A stretch of 64,000 bases of DNA from Escherichia coli O127:H6 str. E2348/69 (GTDB taxonomy: Bacteria; Pseudomonadota; Gammaproteobacteria; Enterobacterales; Enterobacteriaceae): assembly GCF_000026545.1 (NCBI RefSeq), contig NC_011601.1. One strand, written 5' to 3'. Position numbers and translations under genes: made by a program. This document shows positions 26,882 through 34,714 of this stretch, in pieces. The notes below the pieces were generated by a model, which worked only from the letters and a program-made list of their open reading frames with translations, searched no databases and was not told the DNA's origin. Position 1 is the stretch's first letter. Every line of letters begins with the position of its first letter.

Positions 26882-27178
26882 TTAAAATTCCATCTGGGTT
26901 TGTTCAGAACGCTCGGTTGCCGCCGGGCGTTTTTTATTGGTGAGTCCATCAAGCGCATACTTAAAAGCCCTACTAATCGGACTGATGTCTGATGCCATTC
27001 CGAAAGCACACAAGACCGAAGCAATAAATCTCCAGTCCGTTCTGCTTATCTTCGATTCATGACAGCCAATCATCTTTGCCAGACCGCGCTGGGTAAGCGT
27101 TGACAGGTTGATGAGTAAATCTGTTTCTGCGCGATCAATTTCTCGCTGTGTTGGCTTGCTGTAACTTGCTTGTGTCAT
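26882..27178 (-). CDS. cII: cII-like transcriptional activator (mosaic: lambda-like C-terminus, divergent N-terminus)
   Basis: C-terminal LTNKKRPAATERSEQxQMEF matches lambda CII; N-terminal ~75 aa diverge. Confidence 0.7.
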   Translation of the reverse strand: MTQASYSKPTQREIDRAETDLLINLSTLTQRGLAKMIGCHESKISRTDWRFIASVLCAFGMASDISPISRAFKYALDGLTNKKRPAATERSEQTQMEF

Positions 27179-27316
27179 TTCTTAATATTTCCAATAGTGA
27201 ATAGTTAGTTGAAAGATATGCGTGGAAACGCATATGGCCTTAGTTGGTCAGATATATTGGGACTCGCTTTGTCAGCGACGTAGGACGAATGTCCATTGTG
27301 AAAATAGCGGTGTTAC

Positions 27317-27526
<210 letters not shown>

Positions 27527-27543
27527 TTAGTACATGCAACCAT

Positions 27544-27607
27544 TATCACCGCCAGAGGTAAAATAGTCAACACGCACGGTGTTAGATATTTATCCCTTGC
27601 GGTGATA
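27544..27607. promoter_or_regulatory. oR1-oR2-oR3 operators with overlapping pR/pRM (lambda-type)
   Basis: tatcaccgccagaggta, caacacgcacggtgtta, tatcccttgcggtgata read directly; match lambda oR sites. Confidence 0.85.
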
Positions 27608-27614
27608 GATTTAA

Positions 27615-28331
<717 letters not shown>

Positions 28332-28338
28332 CACGTAA

Positions 28339-28776
28339 ATGATTAAAGAACGTATTTCTTATATCATTCCGATTGCGATGGATGAAGGCAACCCAGTAAC
28401 TCCAGTTCTTATCTATGAAATGGATAAAGACTCCCATGAAGTGGATCTATCATTTGGCGCTTTTTTTATCGGCCTTAAGGCTACAAAAAAATATTCCATA
28501 GGCATTGAGGTTTTCAATGCTCAAGAAATACCGATACCAATTGACACAAAACTGTACTCCAACCATAAGTTTTTTACGGTAGCAGAAGCCAACGATGGAG
28601 AAACCATCGTATCAACTTCTATGAGAATTAACTTCCCAAGGGTGAAAATTATCAAGCCTGGGATATTCGAAGTTAGAGCATCACTGGTTAATCCTGATAA
28701 AGGCGAAGTAATTGATGTAAAAAGTTCGTTTTTTGACGTGAAGATAACAGGATCAGTTCGCGATGAGTTTAGATAA
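28339..28776 (+). CDS. Hypothetical 145-aa protein occupying the rexA position
   Basis: ORF track; starts 8 nt after cI stop; no recognisable family. Confidence 0.6.
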   Translation: MIKERISYIIPIAMDEGNPVTPVLIYEMDKDSHEVDLSFGAFFIGLKATKKYSIGIEVFNAQEIPIPIDTKLYSNHKFFTVAEANDGETIVSTSMRINFPRVKIIKPGIFEVRASLVNPDKGEVIDVKSSFFDVKITGSVRDEFR

Positions 28777-29134
28777 CAAGGTTGCTCAGCTTCGTCCAAA
28801 TCAAAACATATCTCGCCCAATTGGACACTATTCCACTGATGATGCATACTCACGGCATGGTGGAGGAAACGGCGGAGGTAACATGCTTGAGGCTAGAGTT
28901 GCAAAGCTAGAGTCTGATGTTGAATACATCAAGCGCGATCTCGCTGAAGTAAAGTCAGATATAAAATCTGTAGATTCTCGTCTGTCAGGTATTGAGACAA
29001 GCATTAGCTCAGCAAAAATCACCATCAAGGCATCTGCGGTCGTTGTCAGTTTCGTGTTCGCATTTTGCGCCTACATTTTTGGAAGTTATGTTTCCAAAAT
29101 CCTTGATGCCTTAAACGGACTCGTTCTTAAGTAA
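28763..29134 (+). CDS. Hypothetical 123-aa membrane-anchored coiled-coil protein occupying the rexB position
   Basis: Gly-rich linker GGGNGGGN, predicted coiled coil, C-terminal hydrophobic helix AVVVSFVFAFCAYIFGSYV; start overlaps upstream stop. Confidence 0.6.
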   Translation: MSLDNKVAQLRPNQNISRPIGHYSTDDAYSRHGGGNGGGNMLEARVAKLESDVEYIKRDLAEVKSDIKSVDSRLSGIETSISSAKITIKASAVVVSFVFAFCAYIFGSYVSKILDALNGLVLK

Positions 29135-29140
29135 CACACA

Positions 29141-29168
29141 ACCCGGCCTCAGCGCCGGGTTTTCTTTA
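29141..29168 (+). terminator. Rho-independent terminator (timm-like) ending the cI operon
   Basis: Hairpin cccggcctcagcgccggg followed by TTTTCTTT. Confidence 0.6.
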
Positions 29169-29324
29169 CCTCACGATCCCCTTCACCCAATAACACATAA
29201 CCAATTGTATTTATTTGAAAATTAATAGATACAACTCACTAAACATCGCAATTCAGATCTCTCGATCACCTCCCAAGCCACACACCCCTGCAAAAAAATA
29301 AATCTATATAAAAAACATACAGAT

Positions 29325-29390
29325 AACCATCTGCGGTGATAAATTATCTCTGGCGGTGTTGGCATAAATACCACTGGCGGTGATACTAAA
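29325..29390. promoter_or_regulatory. oL3-oL2-oL1 operators and pL promoter (lambda-type), firing toward N
   Basis: aaccatctgcggtgata, tatctctggcggtgttg, taccactggcggtgata; -35 ttggca and -10 gatact. Confidence 0.8.
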
Positions 29391-29635
29391 CACATCAGCA
29401 GGACGCACTACTCACCAGGGCGGTGAATATACAACGATTCAAGCAAGAATCTACGGCGCTGACAAAGCGCAATAACCAAAGTGAACTTTGGGGTGTGGTG
29501 AAGGGTTCATGGACGGGAATATGTCGCACGTAAAGCGGCGAGGCCTGCGGGACTATTGCCGAATTGAAGTAGGCCGAAACAGGTCGAAATGGGTCTCCCA
29601 CCTACCACACCACCAAAGTTCACCAGGAGGTCTAT

Positions 29636-30019
29636 ATGACACGCAGAACTCAGTTCAAAGGCAATTCACGTTCTCGTCGTCGTGAGCGTTTAAAGGCAAA
29701 GGCATTAGCTAACGGCGTACTGGCCCGCGAAGAAGCAATAAGTTCAGAAGTATTACACCGCCCTACTCTAAGCAGAGCGCAGATTCAGGCTAAAGGTACT
29801 CACGAAACGCCTGAGCGCATAGAAGACGCTAAGCCAATTAAGTTCATGGCACAGGACGTGATCTGGCAACAGAAAGAATACAGACGCAATCTGGAGCGAG
29901 CGGCCATTGTGTACGCGAATGAGTTTGGACATAAGCAACCAGAAACTGGTGTATGTCTTCCAAACGTAGCCATTTACGCGGCAGGATACCGGAAATCAAA
30001 ACAACTGACAGCAAGATGA
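29636..30019 (+). CDS. N: Antiterminator N-like protein (P22 gp24-type, Arg-rich motif)
   Basis: Arg-rich N-terminus NSRSRRRERLKAKA and C-terminus AIYAAGYRKSKQLTAR resemble P22 gene 24 product; first gene after pL. Confidence 0.6.
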   Translation: MTRRTQFKGNSRSRRRERLKAKALANGVLAREEAISSEVLHRPTLSRAQIQAKGTHETPERIEDAKPIKFMAQDVIWQQKEYRRNLERAAIVYANEFGHKQPETGVCLPNVAIYAAGYRKSKQLTAR

Positions 30020-30077
30020 CTTGTGTTGGTCGCCAGAAAATGAAATTAGGCAGCAAACCACTTATTTGAGGTGAGAT

Positions 30078-30548
30078 ATGACAAAATCATGGAGCGTACC
30101 TTTTCCTGAATCAGAAACTGAACATGAGGGAATGCCTGTTTTCTGGAGATTCCAGGCGACAGTTGAAGAAGATGGAATCAAAATATTCGCACTTCAATAT
30201 ATAGCTTTTCATCAGACAGAGCATTATGCATGGTTGGTTCCTGCGCATTGGATTGTTAATTTTAAACCAGCACCAAATCAGTGGTTACAGGAATGGAAAC
30301 AAAAGAGAAATAGATATGCAATTAAGAAAGTAGCAAAAAATGCAGAAAGATCTTTTGCATTCCCAACGAAGAAACTTGCCATTGAAAGTTTATTGCGCCG
30401 AAAGAAATACCATTTAATGAGAATCAAACAAGATTTGGCTGTTGTATCAACTCTTGTTGATGGGATGAAGAATATTGATACATCAACACCAGATATTGAA
30501 TATAACTTTGGACACAACCAAGAAACAGAAAATTGGGTATTCTACTAG
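30078..30548 (+). CDS. Hypothetical 156-aa protein in the ral/sieB slot
   Basis: ORF track; AT-rich by eye; followed by hairpin terminator. Confidence 0.5.
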   Translation: MTKSWSVPFPESETEHEGMPVFWRFQATVEEDGIKIFALQYIAFHQTEHYAWLVPAHWIVNFKPAPNQWLQEWKQKRNRYAIKKVAKNAERSFAFPTKKLAIESLLRRKKYHLMRIKQDLAVVSTLVDGMKNIDTSTPDIEYNFGHNQETENWVFY

Positions 30549-30573
30549 GCCGCATAGTCGGCCTTTATTTTTG
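30548..30573 (+). terminator. Putative rho-independent terminator
   Basis: Hairpin aggccgcatagtcggcct plus T-run. Confidence 0.45.
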
Positions 30574-30594
30574 GCATAAACAACAGAGGCTAAC

Positions 30595-30891
30595 ATGGGA
30601 TTTAAAGGTACTGAAGGTAAGTGGGAAATAATGATGGATGGGGATGAGATTAAAATCATCCAGGCAGACTCTCTTGAAAATGGCACAGGCTGGCGTTCGT
30701 ATATTGCAATCTGTGAGGAAGTTCAATGTATTGAAGATGCCAATCTAATAGCGGCAGCACCTGACCTTCTCGAAGCACTTCAGTTATTACTTAATCAATC
30801 CAAAAATAGAACAACGACAACATATCCAGAATGGTATGGAGCTGTTAATAAAGGTCTTGCAGCAATCAGAAAAGCTCTTGGGGATAAGTAA
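30595..30891 (+). CDS. Hypothetical 98-aa protein
   Basis: ORF track; AT-rich by eye. Confidence 0.45.
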   Translation: MGFKGTEGKWEIMMDGDEIKIIQADSLENGTGWRSYIAICEEVQCIEDANLIAAAPDLLEALQLLLNQSKNRTTTTYPEWYGAVNKGLAAIRKALGDK

Positions 30892-31079
30892 TGAAAGTAA
30901 AAATAACTGCTTCTAACACCAGTTTTATTAGTGTTGGTGATATTACAGAAGTAATAACAAACCATGATGGAACCCAAGTTATGTGGTCTGATCTTTGTAA
31001 AAGATATGAGCGAGTTAGTTGGTGTAAACTCGTATGGGGCGTCGAATACGAAGAAATACCTGAAATGCATGACGAATAA
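30891..31079 (+). CDS. Hypothetical 62-aa protein (ATGA-coupled to upstream gene)
   Basis: ORF track. Confidence 0.4.
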   Translation: MKVKITASNTSFISVGDITEVITNHDGTQVMWSDLCKRYERVSWCKLVWGVEYEEIPEMHDE

Positions 31080-31213
31080 GCACTGTGTATTCATTCCAAC
31101 GAGTGAATACACGGAGCAATGTCGCTCGTAACTAAACAGGAGCCGACTTGTTCTGATTATTGGAAATCTTCTTTGCCCTCCAATGTGAGGGCGATTTTTT
31201 TAACGGAGGATAT

Positions 31214-32182
31214 ATGAGTGAAGTAACAGATTTAGTTGTTATTGAAAAAGCAAATGCAATGACTGTATTTCAGTCTGCCGACCAGATTGAAGAAATCCTT
31301 CAAAAGGTTGAACGTGAAGTTATGTCCTTTGTGCCTGATATCACAACGGCAAAGGGCAGAAAGGAGATCGCTTCTCTGGCGTATAAAGTTGCGCAGACGA
31401 AAACATATCTCGATGGCCTTGGCAAAGACCTTGTTGCTGAACTGAAGGAAATTCCAAAGCTAATTGATGCCAACCGCAAGACAGTGCGCGATCGCCTTGA
31501 TGAGCTGAAAGCCAAGGCGCGCCAGCCTCTTACTGATTATGAGGAAGAACAGGCGCGGATTAAAGCCGAAGAAGAAGCTAAGGCAGCAGCTGAAGCTCTC
31601 GCAAAGCAAATTGAGTCTGACCATGAAATAGCGATTTTGATGGATCGCGAATTTGACCGCCAAAGAGAAGAGGCAAGACTCAAAGCGGAGCAGGAAAAGC
31701 GAGAGCATGAAGAACGCTTAAAAAGAGAAGCTGAAGAGAAAGCCAGAGCAGAAGCCGAAGCAAAGGCAAAAGCCGAAATTGAAGCAGCAGCAAGGCGAGA
31801 AGCAGAAGCTAAGGCCGCAGCGGAACGTGCAGAGCGTGAACGCATTGAAGCCGAGCAACGAGCACAGCGCGAAGCAAAAGAGGCAGCAGAACGAGCTGAA
31901 AGAGAAAAGCAGGCGGCAATTGAAGCAGAACGCCGAAAAGCACAGGAGGAGGCTGAACGAATCCGGCGCGAGGCTGAAGCAAAAGAGCAAGCCAGAATAG
32001 CAGAAGAAAAAAGAATCAAGGACGAAGAAGAGCGTAGAGCAAAGGATAAAGCTCACCGGAAAGAAGTAAATAACAAAATACTTGCTGACCTTATCAAGGT
32101 TGGTGCATCAGAAGATGTTGCTAAAAATATCATAACAGCCATCGCAAAAGGCGAAGTATTCGCAACAAAAATAACCTACTAA
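31214..32182 (+). CDS. Coiled-coil protein with long low-complexity E/K/R/A-rich region
   Basis: ORF track 31160..32182 trimmed to ATG 31214 (GGAGGA RBS). Confidence 0.5.
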   Translation: MSEVTDLVVIEKANAMTVFQSADQIEEILQKVEREVMSFVPDITTAKGRKEIASLAYKVAQTKTYLDGLGKDLVAELKEIPKLIDANRKTVRDRLDELKAKARQPLTDYEEEQARIKAEEEAKAAAEALAKQIESDHEIAILMDREFDRQREEARLKAEQEKREHEERLKREAEEKARAEAEAKAKAEIEAAARREAEAKAAAERAERERIEAEQRAQREAKEAAERAEREKQAAIEAERRKAQEEAERIRREAEAKEQARIAEEKRIKDEEERRAKDKAHRKEVNNKILADLIKVGASEDVAKNIITAIAKGEVFATKITY

Positions 32183-32205
32183 TAAACCAACATAAGGAAC
32201 CACCC

Positions 32206-32337
32206 ATGATTTACGCAATCGCGGGAGGCGCTCGCATGGGTGCCTTCCAACTAAATGAATCTTTACTTGAACGAATCACCCGTAAATTACGTGACGGATG
32301 GAAAAGAGTTGAGGTCTTATTATGCGCAATGAAATAG
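32206..32337 (+). CDS. cIII: cIII-like protein
   Basis: Hand translation MIYAIAGGARMGAFQLNESLLERITRKLRDGWKR... shares ESLLERITRKLRDGWKR with lambda CIII. Confidence 0.6.
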   Translation: MIYAIAGGARMGAFQLNESLLERITRKLRDGWKRVEVLLCAMK

Positions 32338-32474
32338 CCATCAATCACCAGATGCTTCGTGCTGCACAGAACAAAGCAGTAATAGCCAGATTTATTGGTG
32401 ATTCAAAAATGTGGCTTGAAGCAAATAAAGCGATGAAATCAGCTATCAACCTTCCGTGGTATCGCAGGAAATGA
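32322..32474 (+). CDS. kil: Kil-like small protein
   Basis: Hand translation MRNEIAINHQMLRAAQNKAVIARFIGDSKMWLEANKAMKSAINLPWYRRK resembles lambda Kil (FIGDEKMF region). Confidence 0.45.
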   Translation: MRNEIAINHQMLRAAQNKAVIARFIGDSKMWLEANKAMKSAINLPWYRRK

Positions 32475-32728
32475 GTTTTACAGATAACTGGTCAGACGAA
32501 GAATTCATTCGTCAGATGAAAGAATTAATCGGTAACGAAGGAGATATTCATGTCACTTGCAACCACAGTGAAGGAGAGCAAGTTACAGAGACGCATGTAC
32601 ACGCAGAAAGCTCTCTGGTATCGCCATAATGGTGACCGCGAAGGAATGCGGGTATGCCTTAATTTGTCCCGAGTCGAAGTATTAAATCAGCGTTATTTCC
32701 TTGGGCCGTGTCCATTCTGAGGTGAATT

Positions 32729-33436
32729 ATGGATTTGAACAAATTCGATGAGCCATTCAGCCCTGAAGATATAGAATGGAGAATACAGCAAAGCGGTAAA
32801 ACACGCGATGGCAAGGTGTGGGCTATGGTGCTGGCTTATGTCACGAACAGGGCAATCATGAAACGCCTTGACGATGTTTGCGGCAAAGCAGGATGGCGCA
32901 ATGAATACCGAGATATTCCCAACAACGGAGGCGTTGAATGCGGCATATCAATCAGGATTGATTCCGAATGGGTAACCAAATGGGATGCTGCTGAAAACAC
33001 GCAGGTAGAAGCCGTAAAAGGTGGTCGTTCCGGTGCAATGAAGCGCGCTGCCGTTCAGTGGGGAATCGGTCGGTATCTGTATAACCTTGAGGAAGGTTTC
33101 GCACAAACATCTCTCGATAAAAAGCAGGGATGGCACAGGGCAAAACTCAAGGATGGAACAGGATTTTACTGGCTCCCTCCATCGCTGCCGGGATGGGCAA
33201 TCCCAGCATCAGATAACAAACCATCACCAGAAAATACCAACCAGACATCTCCATCGGTTGACTGCGAACAAATCCTGAAAGACTTCAGCGATTATGCATC
33301 AACAGAAACTGACAAGAAAAAACTCATCGAGCGTTATCAGCGTGACTGGCAATTAATGGCTGGCAACGAGGAGGCACAGGCTAAATGCGTTCAGGTAATG
33401 AACATCAGAGTTAACGAACTAAAACAGGCGGCATAA
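32729..33436 (+). CDS. Single-strand annealing protein, Rad52/Sak-like
   Basis: Rad52-type core recognised; occupies bet/erf position. Confidence 0.65.
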   Translation: MDLNKFDEPFSPEDIEWRIQQSGKTRDGKVWAMVLAYVTNRAIMKRLDDVCGKAGWRNEYRDIPNNGGVECGISIRIDSEWVTKWDAAENTQVEAVKGGRSGAMKRAAVQWGIGRYLYNLEEGFAQTSLDKKQGWHRAKLKDGTGFYWLPPSLPGWAIPASDNKPSPENTNQTSPSVDCEQILKDFSDYASTETDKKKLIERYQRDWQLMAGNEEAQAKCVQVMNIRVNELKQAA

Positions 33437-33904
33437 ATGTCTCACTTGGACGGAATTATTAAAAGATTCGAGTCCAGCTACAAAGTTAATGAAACAACAG
33501 GTTGCTGGGAGTCTACCTATTCAAAAAACAAAGGAGGATACACAAAATTTGTAGCCTTTGGCGTAACAATGCTTTCTCATCGGGTTGCTTTTGAGCTTTA
33601 TCACTCCCCCATTCCATCTGGGAAGATGGTTTGCCACAAATGCGATAACCAATGCTGCGTTAATCCTGAACATCTCTTTTTAGGTAGCGCGCAAGAAAAC
33701 ATGGACGACAAGATAGCAAAAGGAAGGCATCGTGGAGCCAAGAAAGGTCATGCTCATCATGGTGCAAAATTAACAGAGTGGCAGGTTATAGAAATTAGGA
33801 AAAGACTCTCTGAAAAAGAGAGTCAGTACAAGATAGCAAAAGACATGGGTGTATCTCAATCAATTATAAGCAACATAAAAACTGGCAAGAGGTGGAGCAA
33901 ATGA
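33437..33904 (+). CDS. HNH homing endonuclease (free-standing, between annealase and ssb)
   Basis: HNH motif [26 protein letters not shown]. Confidence 0.75.
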
Positions 33905-34407
33905 GTTCTCGCGGGATAAATAAGGTGATTATCCTTGGTCGGGTAGGACAAGACCCGGAAGTTCGATACTCACCATCAGGAACAGCGTTCGCTAACCTGA
34001 CAATAGCCACGTCAGAACAATGGCGAGATAAAAATACTGGCGAGCAAAAGGAATTGACTGAATGGCATCGTGTTGCTGTATCCGGGAAACTGGCTGAGGT
34101 CGTGGGGCAGTATGTGAAAAAAGGTGATCAGATTTATTTCGAGGGAATGCTGAGAACCAGAAAGTGGAAAGACCAGTCAGGGCAAGACCGTTACACAACC
34201 GAGGTTCATGTCGGAATTAATGGCGTGATGCAAATGCTTGGCGGCATTGGCGACAGCAAACAACAAGCAGCCAGCAGGCAATCACAGAAGCCACAGCAGC
34301 AATCATCACCAGCACAACACAACGAACCTCCGATGGATTTTGACGACGATATACCCTTTGCACCAGTAACTCTCCCCTTCCCTCGTCACGCTATTCACGC
34401 AATTTAA
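33892..34407 (+). CDS. ssb: Single-stranded DNA-binding protein
   Basis: OB-fold SSB N-terminus, Gln/Pro-rich linker and acidic DDDIPF tail. Confidence 0.85.
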
Positions 34408-34420
34408 TCAGGAGAAAATC

Positions 34421-34714
34421 ATGCCAGCGCCTCTGTATGGTGCGGATGACCCGCGCCGCTGTTCCGGCAATTCCGTATCGGAGGTGCTGGATAAATTCAG
34501 AAAAAACTACGATCGAATAATGTCTCTACCGCAGGAAACGAAAGAGGAAAAGGAATTTCGCCACTGTATATGGCTTGCAGAGAAAGAAGAACGCGAGCGA
34601 ATTTACCAGACATCAATCCGACCATTCCGCAAAGCCACATATACCCACTTCCCTGAAATTGACCCGCGCCTGCGTAATTACCGCTCACGTTATGGCGCTA
34701 TCAGTAATGACTGA
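34421..34714 (+). CDS. Hypothetical protein
   Basis: ORF track. Confidence 0.4.

Follow-up and report, generated by a model that had tools for sequence, protein, structure and literature searches.

In the lambdoid prophage that lies within a 64,000-nucleotide stretch of the Escherichia coli O127:H6 str. E2348/69 chromosome (contig NC_011601.1; the whole stretch is called the window below), four open reading frames (ORFs) follow the antiterminator gene N in the early-left (pL) operon, which runs on the + strand. What are these four genes, and what do they do for the phage? A first-pass annotation made from the sequence had described ORF1 to ORF4 as four AT-rich, uncharacterised genes filling an accessory slot between N and cIII, at a position that it considered typical of anti-restriction or exclusion functions. 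We regard it as fairly probable that the N-proximal part of the pL operon is made up of three independent cassettes, with ORF1 to ORF3 being accessory genes and ORF4 heading the recombination block. The idea of an accessory slot was right; anti-restriction or exclusion is unproven for ORF1 to ORF3 and wrong for ORF4.

Cassettes in the interval after N

The four + strand ORFs and their sizes were confirmed by our ORF calls, by the NCBI Prokaryotic Genome Annotation Pipeline (PGAP) and by homologues in other genera. PGAP places the identical four coding sequences on E2348/69, naming three of them 'hypothetical' and ORF4 a 'coiled-coil domain-containing protein'. Since the homologues of each ORF are conserved at the amino-acid level across genera, none of the four is a chance ORF, and all are genuine genes. 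The start of ORF4 is the ATG behind GGAGG and not the TTG upstream. The description of the genes as AT-rich was correct for ORF1, ORF2 and ORF3, with GC contents of 36%, 40% and 35%, respectively, but not for ORF4, which at 46.5% is close to the window (47.8%). The encoded proteins have predicted isoelectric points (pI) of 9.05, 4.62, 4.82 and 5.49 in the order of their genes. A functional annotation is absent from all four, which are indeed uncharacterised.

Megablast homology broke at about 30050, 30547 and 31080, each of them a gene or terminator boundary. These breakpoints split the four genes, which the first-pass annotation had treated as one unit, and the interval appears to consist of three cassettes that assort independently: ORF1 with its terminator, ORF2-ORF3, and ORF4 with its leader. 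The right edge of the ORF1 cassette is a terminator-like hairpin followed by a T-run, which coincides with a homology breakpoint (query position 528). This is the terminator that had previously been assigned to ORF1; a second site, 20 nt upstream of the ORF4 start, had been missed. The left edge of the ORF4 cassette is an inverted repeat next to the breakpoint at 31080, and the leader of ORF4 contains a hairpin and the second terminator-like site. The sequence of the inverted repeat also precedes ORF4 in other loci, and at least 37 of 77 related loci had a GCCCTCC..GAGGGC motif with a T-run ahead of ORF4. In many sister phages, the inverted repeat and the second terminator were seen to travel with ORF4. 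The number of terminator-like sites was not above chance (6 found versus 3.9 ± 2.0 expected), and the two terminators were called because of their position after stop codons and, for the second, also because of its conservation in those loci. A consensus scan detected no sigma-70-like promoter on the + strand between 29388 and 32500, and an Rfam scan of 27000-33000 produced no match.

Among complete E. coli genomes, the exact four-gene arrangement occurred only in three assemblies of E2348/69, and no phage record covered as much as 80% of the interval. ORF1 alone was found in 597 of 5426 complete genomes (11%) and the ORF2-ORF3 pair in 59, and the query with the whole interval matched 2294 (42%), chiefly via the ORF4-cIII-kil block.

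The occupants of the slot were surveyed in 80 viral contigs encoding an ORF4 relative, in which + strand ORFs were called and clustered. Counts for the stretch between N and ORF4 were restricted to the 58 loci with a recognisable N upstream. In these loci the interval measured 385-3914 bp, and it contained 50 gene orders and 77 gene families. ORF1 was present in 14 loci, ORF2 in 14, ORF3 in 5 and orf184 in 6, and a 66-aa protein (family c42), which we recognised as lambda Ral, was present in 8. The other frequent occupants also belong to PHROG families with no assigned function. High gene turnover was thus found between two conserved anchors, with N being the upstream flank, and the earlier view of the N-to-cIII interval as an accessory slot was borne out. 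According to Silas et al. (bioRxiv 10.1101/2023.04.06.535777), orf184 (107 aa) is a trigger of the P4 gop-beta-cII abortive system and lies 'in the same accessory region with ral'. ORF1 to ORF3 are occupants of this already described hypervariable 'ral accessory region'.

ORF1, a basic protein with 7 tryptophans that belongs to phrog_1636, behaves as a single-gene cassette. It is vb_24B_11c of Shiga toxin (Stx) phage 24B, and it lies directly after N in H-19B, BP-4795, 24B and many Stx1 and Stx2 phages. In related loci it adjoins N or trails another small gene, and in seven of them it lies directly before ORF4. Homologues were also found between N and cIII in a Cronobacter prophage and, in a Pectobacterium prophage, beside xis/int. 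When 1.84 billion representatives were searched with a profile, 87 clusters were returned, including distant phage proteins of 140-150 aa that share three motifs. One distant relative sits between Cro-like and pRha-like genes, and Pfam-A assigned no family to 24 distant relatives. A second match to ORF1 was observed elsewhere on the E2348/69 chromosome (NZ_CP059840.2), outside the window, and other strains contained up to 4 copies per genome.

ORF2 contains the motifs FKGTxGxW, EDAxLIAAAPDLLEAL and AAIxKALG. The unnamed Pfam family PF27050 has a precomputed match on nearly all listed ORF2 homologues, which are up to 97% identical to ORF2; our local Pfam-A scan, run with a library that lacks this family, did not report it for ORF2 itself, and no paper in the literature searched mentions PF27050. 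A structural model of ORF2 (predicted local distance difference test score, pLDDT, 77) suggests a beta-hairpin followed by a helical hairpin. Its PDB matches were generic, and its AFDB matches were uncharacterised relatives as far as Alphaproteobacteria, one of them labelled Ead/Ea22-like. The N-terminal half of ORF2 is also encoded by Klebsiella, Cronobacter and Proteus myoviruses of ~145 kb. No close relative of ORF3 was found in lambdoid phage records. ORF3 is 55-59% identical to an independent ORF in a 9NA-like phage and to the C-terminus of RB49p076, a protein encoded in an early-gene cluster of Krischvirus phages, which are T4-like. The occurrence of ORF2 and ORF3 domains in strictly virulent phages speaks for a function during lytic infection and not for protection of the lysogen.

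ORF4 and the recombination genes

ORF4 is composed of a conserved N-terminal domain (residues 1-115), a helix of ~170 aa rich in E, R, K and A, and a conserved C-terminal stretch of ~40 aa. Charged residues make up 58% of the central 170, alanine 25% and hydrophobic residues only 10%, a composition that would be more in keeping with a single charged helix than with a heptad coiled coil. We also observed that this centre varies in length among otherwise near-identical homologues through in-frame insertions and deletions in the repetitive E/A/K/R sequence, and the proteins range from 245 to 333 aa.

The first-pass annotation had proposed profile and structure searches on each protein. Pfam-A gave no match and NCBIfam nothing significant for any of the four. 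PADLOC-DB v2 gave only sub-threshold matches, to Cas1_II (E 0.0096) and, via the charged helix, to LmuB (E 0.029). Searches against PDB sequence profiles with ORF1, ORF2 and the N-terminal domain of ORF4 detected no relative (best E 0.2-0.7), and no specific fold match was obtained for any of the four proteins. ORF4 matched phrog_1376 (E 2.7e-110) and, over its full length, gp39 of phage phi80 (51% identity, E 4e-65), and it is the orthologue of this protein (agt/mog). In the phi80 record (NC_021190), gp39 carries the gene name agt, the description 'anti-toxin for Gam' and the comment 'Mog (modifier of Gam)'; agt is followed directly by gamL ('toxic without Mog'), recT and exo. Alignment showed that phrog_1376 relatives share the three-part build across five genera, Escherichia, Pseudomonas, Vibrio, Sinorhizobium and Acinetobacter. 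Five distant homologues of ORF4 had no Pfam match. DUF1351, considered as a lead for ORF4, received no hmmscan support in ORF4 or in these five homologues, and no DUF1351/ORF4-like gene was present in Staphylococcus phage 80alpha or Listeria phage A118.

ORF4 is linked to recombination genes. In 78 of 79 viral loci, a recombination or Gam-type gene was located 0-6 small ORFs downstream of ORF4, the exception being a truncated locus, and the annealing protein (Erf, RecT, Bet or Sak4) was encoded a median of 548 bp downstream. ORF4 relatives immediately adjoin the recombination or Gam-type genes in phi80, D3, phiLM21 and TCUAN1. The ORF4 relative lies directly upstream of Erf and a YqaJ exonuclease in Pseudomonas phage D3 and Sinorhizobium phage phiLM21, directly upstream of Bet in an Acinetobacter phage, and upstream of ExoVIII, with a gap of 87 bp, in a Vibrio phage. 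Comparison of the viral loci showed that ORF4 is followed by cIII and kil in most loci of the E. coli type, in which three genes (cIII, kil and a small ORF) are located between ORF4 and the annealing protein. In this arrangement, ORF4 is the conserved flank of the slot and heads the recombination block; it is not a variable accessory gene. As the linkage and the phi80 annotation suggest, ORF4 most likely works alongside the phage's recombination and anti-RecBCD functions, as their partner or moderator.

Expression and candidate functions

With no promoter detected between N and ORF4, transcription from pL would have to pass the two terminators predicted by the consensus scans, and ORF1 to ORF4 would be made only when N is active, that is, in early infection or upon induction. 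Because ORF1 to ORF3 lack a dedicated promoter and are located downstream of pL and ahead of terminators, they would be expected to be produced only early, after N read-through. The three would be soluble cytoplasmic accessory proteins, most likely modifying the host or countering host defences, as their position and the homologous domains in virulent phages suggest, and they would not act in exclusion at the membrane. ORF4 would act together with the recombination and anti-RecBCD proteins.

Several observations weigh against this model. N-dependent expression is deduced from consensus scans. A literature search retrieved no paper that mentions the four RefSeq accessions or vb_24B_11c, and no functional assay of any of the four proteins. 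The supplements of two accessory-gene screens, including a table of 200 genes tested, were searched with one or two peptide fragments per protein, and these fragments were absent. The structural model of ORF1 was weak (pLDDT 63). As for ORF4, the phi80 label 'anti-toxin for Gam' is a record annotation, and searches for 'modifier of Gam' and GamL found nothing further in the literature. This prophage carries Abc2, not GamL, and no anti-RecBCD gene was recognised in 25 of the 79 ORF4 loci; a Gam-specific role of ORF4 therefore cannot be general. Phage HK75 carries an Erf module without ORF4, indicating that ORF4 is dispensable for Erf modules, and the ORF4 family is missing from a 2025 survey of lambdoid recombination modules.

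One reading, which follows the first-pass annotation, is that all four genes, expressed early from pL, provide anti-restriction or other counter-defence functions and are functional replacements of Ral. We consider this doubtful. The slot is shared with Ral and with the abortive-system trigger orf184, ORF1 to ORF3 are AT-rich and horizontally exchanged, and virulent phages, for which counter-defence is a necessity, share domains with ORF2 and ORF3. By position, such a function is plausible for ORF1 to ORF3; however, position alone is a weak argument, since most families in the slot have no assigned function, and it does not extend to ORF4, which is conserved rather than variable and is tied to recombination genes. 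The earlier conclusion that none of the four is ral was upheld, with tblastn of Ral against the whole window giving no match at E 1e-3; the query was the family c42 sequence from a sister locus, the one recognised as lambda Ral. Similarity to Ocr and ArdA was absent as well. Being basic, ORF1 is not a DNA mimic; the acidity of ORF2 and ORF3, which would suit one, is only mild, and their models contain no mimic-like fold. The absence of the searched peptide fragments of all four proteins from the supplements of the published screens also speaks against this proposal.

A bolder extension of our model, which we consider rather unlikely, is that ORF4/Agt is an unrecognised, near-universal fifth component of single-strand-annealing modules and that ORF1 is a counter-defence or host-takeover protein with a new fold. 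In Stx phages of the 24B type, ORF1 alone separates N from ea10. The end domains of ORF4, held apart by a charged helix of ~25 nm (a length estimated from about 170 helical residues), could bind or moderate the anti-RecBCD proteins or the annealing and exonuclease proteins. ORF4 could thereby keep the recombination proteins from killing the host or from tripping abortive defences such as Old and retrons.

ORF2 and ORF3 might also be one two-protein unit, either a complex or a toxin-antitoxin-like pair, and not two independent genes. The start of ORF3 overlaps the stop of ORF2 at TAATG, and a small ORF almost always follows directly behind ORF2 in the related loci examined. However, the partner is interchangeable, with ORF3, a 53-aa protein or a 70-aa protein occupying this place in sister loci. 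ORF3 is also found without a full ORF2 and is fused to a different N-terminus in RB49-like phages, and neither protein matched a known toxin or antitoxin family. These findings make a dedicated pair unlikely.

Protection of the lysogen by ORF1 to ORF3, as prophage-borne defence or superinfection-exclusion genes like sieB, appeared very unlikely. SieB, which is encoded in this neighbourhood in lambda and P22, is a membrane protein that has its own promoter and is expressed in lysogens. ORF1 looks moron-like in being AT-rich and having its own terminator, and it is common in E. coli prophages. However, no sigma-70-like promoter was found between N and ORF4, so that ORF1 to ORF3 should be silent under cI repression; the consensus scan indicates that ORF1 is probably not expressed from the repressed prophage. 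The maximum 19-residue Kyte-Doolittle means of the four proteins were 0.56-1.11, and no membrane segment was detected in any of them, which agrees with the earlier statement that none is sieB and argues against SieB-like exclusion. The best PADLOC matches were not significant, and the lysogen-expressed slot next to cI is already taken by two other ORFs.

Many database records carry ORF4 under the name 'cell envelope biogenesis protein TolA'. A TolA-like identity in the cell envelope is extremely improbable, since ORF4 contains no membrane anchor (maximum 19-residue hydropathy 0.91) and no TolA domain (Pfam was empty even at E 10), its sub-threshold NCBIfam matches were to unrelated families only, TolA not among them, and PGAP now calls it only a coiled-coil domain-containing protein. 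Judging from composition, the name is most likely a misnomer that originates from a shared E/A/K-rich helix.

We therefore return to the model of three cassettes with a recombination-linked ORF4. The genes are members of recognised families that are uncharacterised, the variable region was known before, and the locus is a typical example of a described slot. Of the results, the placement of ORF4 in the Agt/Mog family of phi80, whose members head recombination modules, is the most useful. ORF1, despite its frequency after N in Shiga-toxin phages and in complete E. coli genomes, is uncharacterised, and ORF4, despite heading recombination modules in phages of five genera, is named 'TolA' in databases. 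Once shown, the function of ORF4 could reveal what allows phages to withstand the RecBCD inhibitors that they make, and recombineering systems could benefit from it.

Neighbouring genes and known systems

The features of the prophage region are compiled in the table.

Table. Positions in the window of the four ORFs, their signals and the neighbouring features
Feature	Coordinates	Strand	Remarks
cro	27317-27517	-	
cI	27618-28331		
Two ORFs (145 aa, 123 aa) in the lambda rexAB position	28339-29134	+	PHROGs 5893 and 6136
Strong terminator	29140-29161		ends the two rexAB-position ORFs
pL-like promoter	29359-29387		consensus scan
N antiterminator, H-19B/933W type, 127 aa	29636-30019	+	phrog_271, E 3e-39; PGAP 'transcriptional antitermination N peptide'
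ORF1, 156 aa	30078-30548	+	single-gene cassette
Terminator-like site, AGGCCG-catagt-CGGCCT then TTATTTTT	30547-30572 (hairpin and T-run 30547-30564)	+	scan
ORF2, 98 aa	30595-30891	+	
ORF3, 62 aa	30891-31079	+	phrog_10407
Inverted repeat GTGTATTCA / TGAATACAC, 9-bp arms, 10-nt loop	31085-31112	+	read from sequence
Second terminator-like site, TTGCCCTC-caatgt-GAGGGCGA then T7	31173-31201 (site in the scan 31173-31194)	+	scan
ORF4, 322 aa	31214-32182	+	phrog_1376
Length-variable centre of ORF4	31560-32070		
cIII, 43 aa	32206-32337	+	PGAP
cIII and overlapping kil (50 aa)	32206-32474	+	PGAP
HK75 Gp33 homologue	32471-32629	+	not annotated by PGAP
Frame overlapping the Gp33 homologue	32550-32720	+	not annotated by PGAP
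Recombination module: Erf-type annealing protein, HNH endonuclease, single-stranded-DNA-binding protein (SSB), Abc2-type anti-RecBCD protein	32729-34714	+	phrog_1097; PGAP names
HNH endonuclease gene	33437-33904	+	between erf and ssb

The two ORFs directly after cI were better placed than the four pL genes for a SieB-like exclusion or defence function expressed in the lysogen, because one of them has a transmembrane segment and both lie in the lysogen-expressed part of the prophage. The segment is at the C-terminus of the second ORF (maximum 19-residue Kyte-Doolittle mean 2.11). Both PHROGs are functionally unannotated, and neither ORF had a PADLOC match.

Downstream of ORF4, the end of cIII overlaps the start of kil. 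The cIII ORF is 43 aa here and in most related viral loci, and it is annotated as 48 aa (147 nt) in the Bas106 and APC_JM3.2 records. A homologue of HK75 Gp33, with the first 45 aa identical and a different C-terminus, is encoded by the small ORF that separates kil from erf. According to a 2026 preprint, HK75 Gp33 is a trigger of the P2 Old defence. Gp33 was considered as a counterpart of one of the four genes and rejected, since it matches this small ORF. For the frame overlapping it, matches were obtained to phrog_1723 and to orf168, which comes from the screen of Silas et al. Within the recombination module, erf and ssb are separated by the HNH endonuclease gene, which has the appearance of an inserted homing endonuclease, because in related loci ssb directly follows erf.

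Five known systems offer comparisons. SieB of lambda and P22 has only the pL-region neighbourhood in common with ORF1 to ORF4, which differ from it in having neither a membrane segment nor a predicted promoter. A moron, in the concept of Hendrix and Juhala, is a promoter, a gene and a terminator of odd base composition. ORF1 resembles the lambdoid morons as a single gene of low GC content with its own terminator, inserted between conserved genes and found at varied sites among phages; it differs from them in that no promoter of its own was found.

The ral accessory region is the closer parallel for ORF1 to ORF3, which fill the variable interval between N and the cIII block, where Ral and orf184 are alternative occupants. 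The three proteins are unrelated in sequence to Ral and orf184, and none of the fragments searched for occurs in the table of 200 genes tested in the screen of Silas et al. The place directly upstream of cIII, which ORF4 fills here, is occupied by ea10 (annotated ssb) in lambda, 933W and 24B. The gene order in 24B is N - ORF1 homologue - ssb - cIII - kil - gam - bet - exo. The ea10 protein differs from ORF4 in size, being 122 aa versus 322 aa.

For ORF4 the counterpart is gp39 of phi80. The two proteins share the length of 322 aa, end-to-end identity, the three-part build and the phrog_1376 assignment, and both are encoded in the pL operon just upstream of recombination genes. The loci differ in what follows: gamL comes next in phi80, whereas cIII, kil and a small ORF intervene here, and the module here is Erf-HNH-SSB-Abc2, with Abc2 and no GamL.

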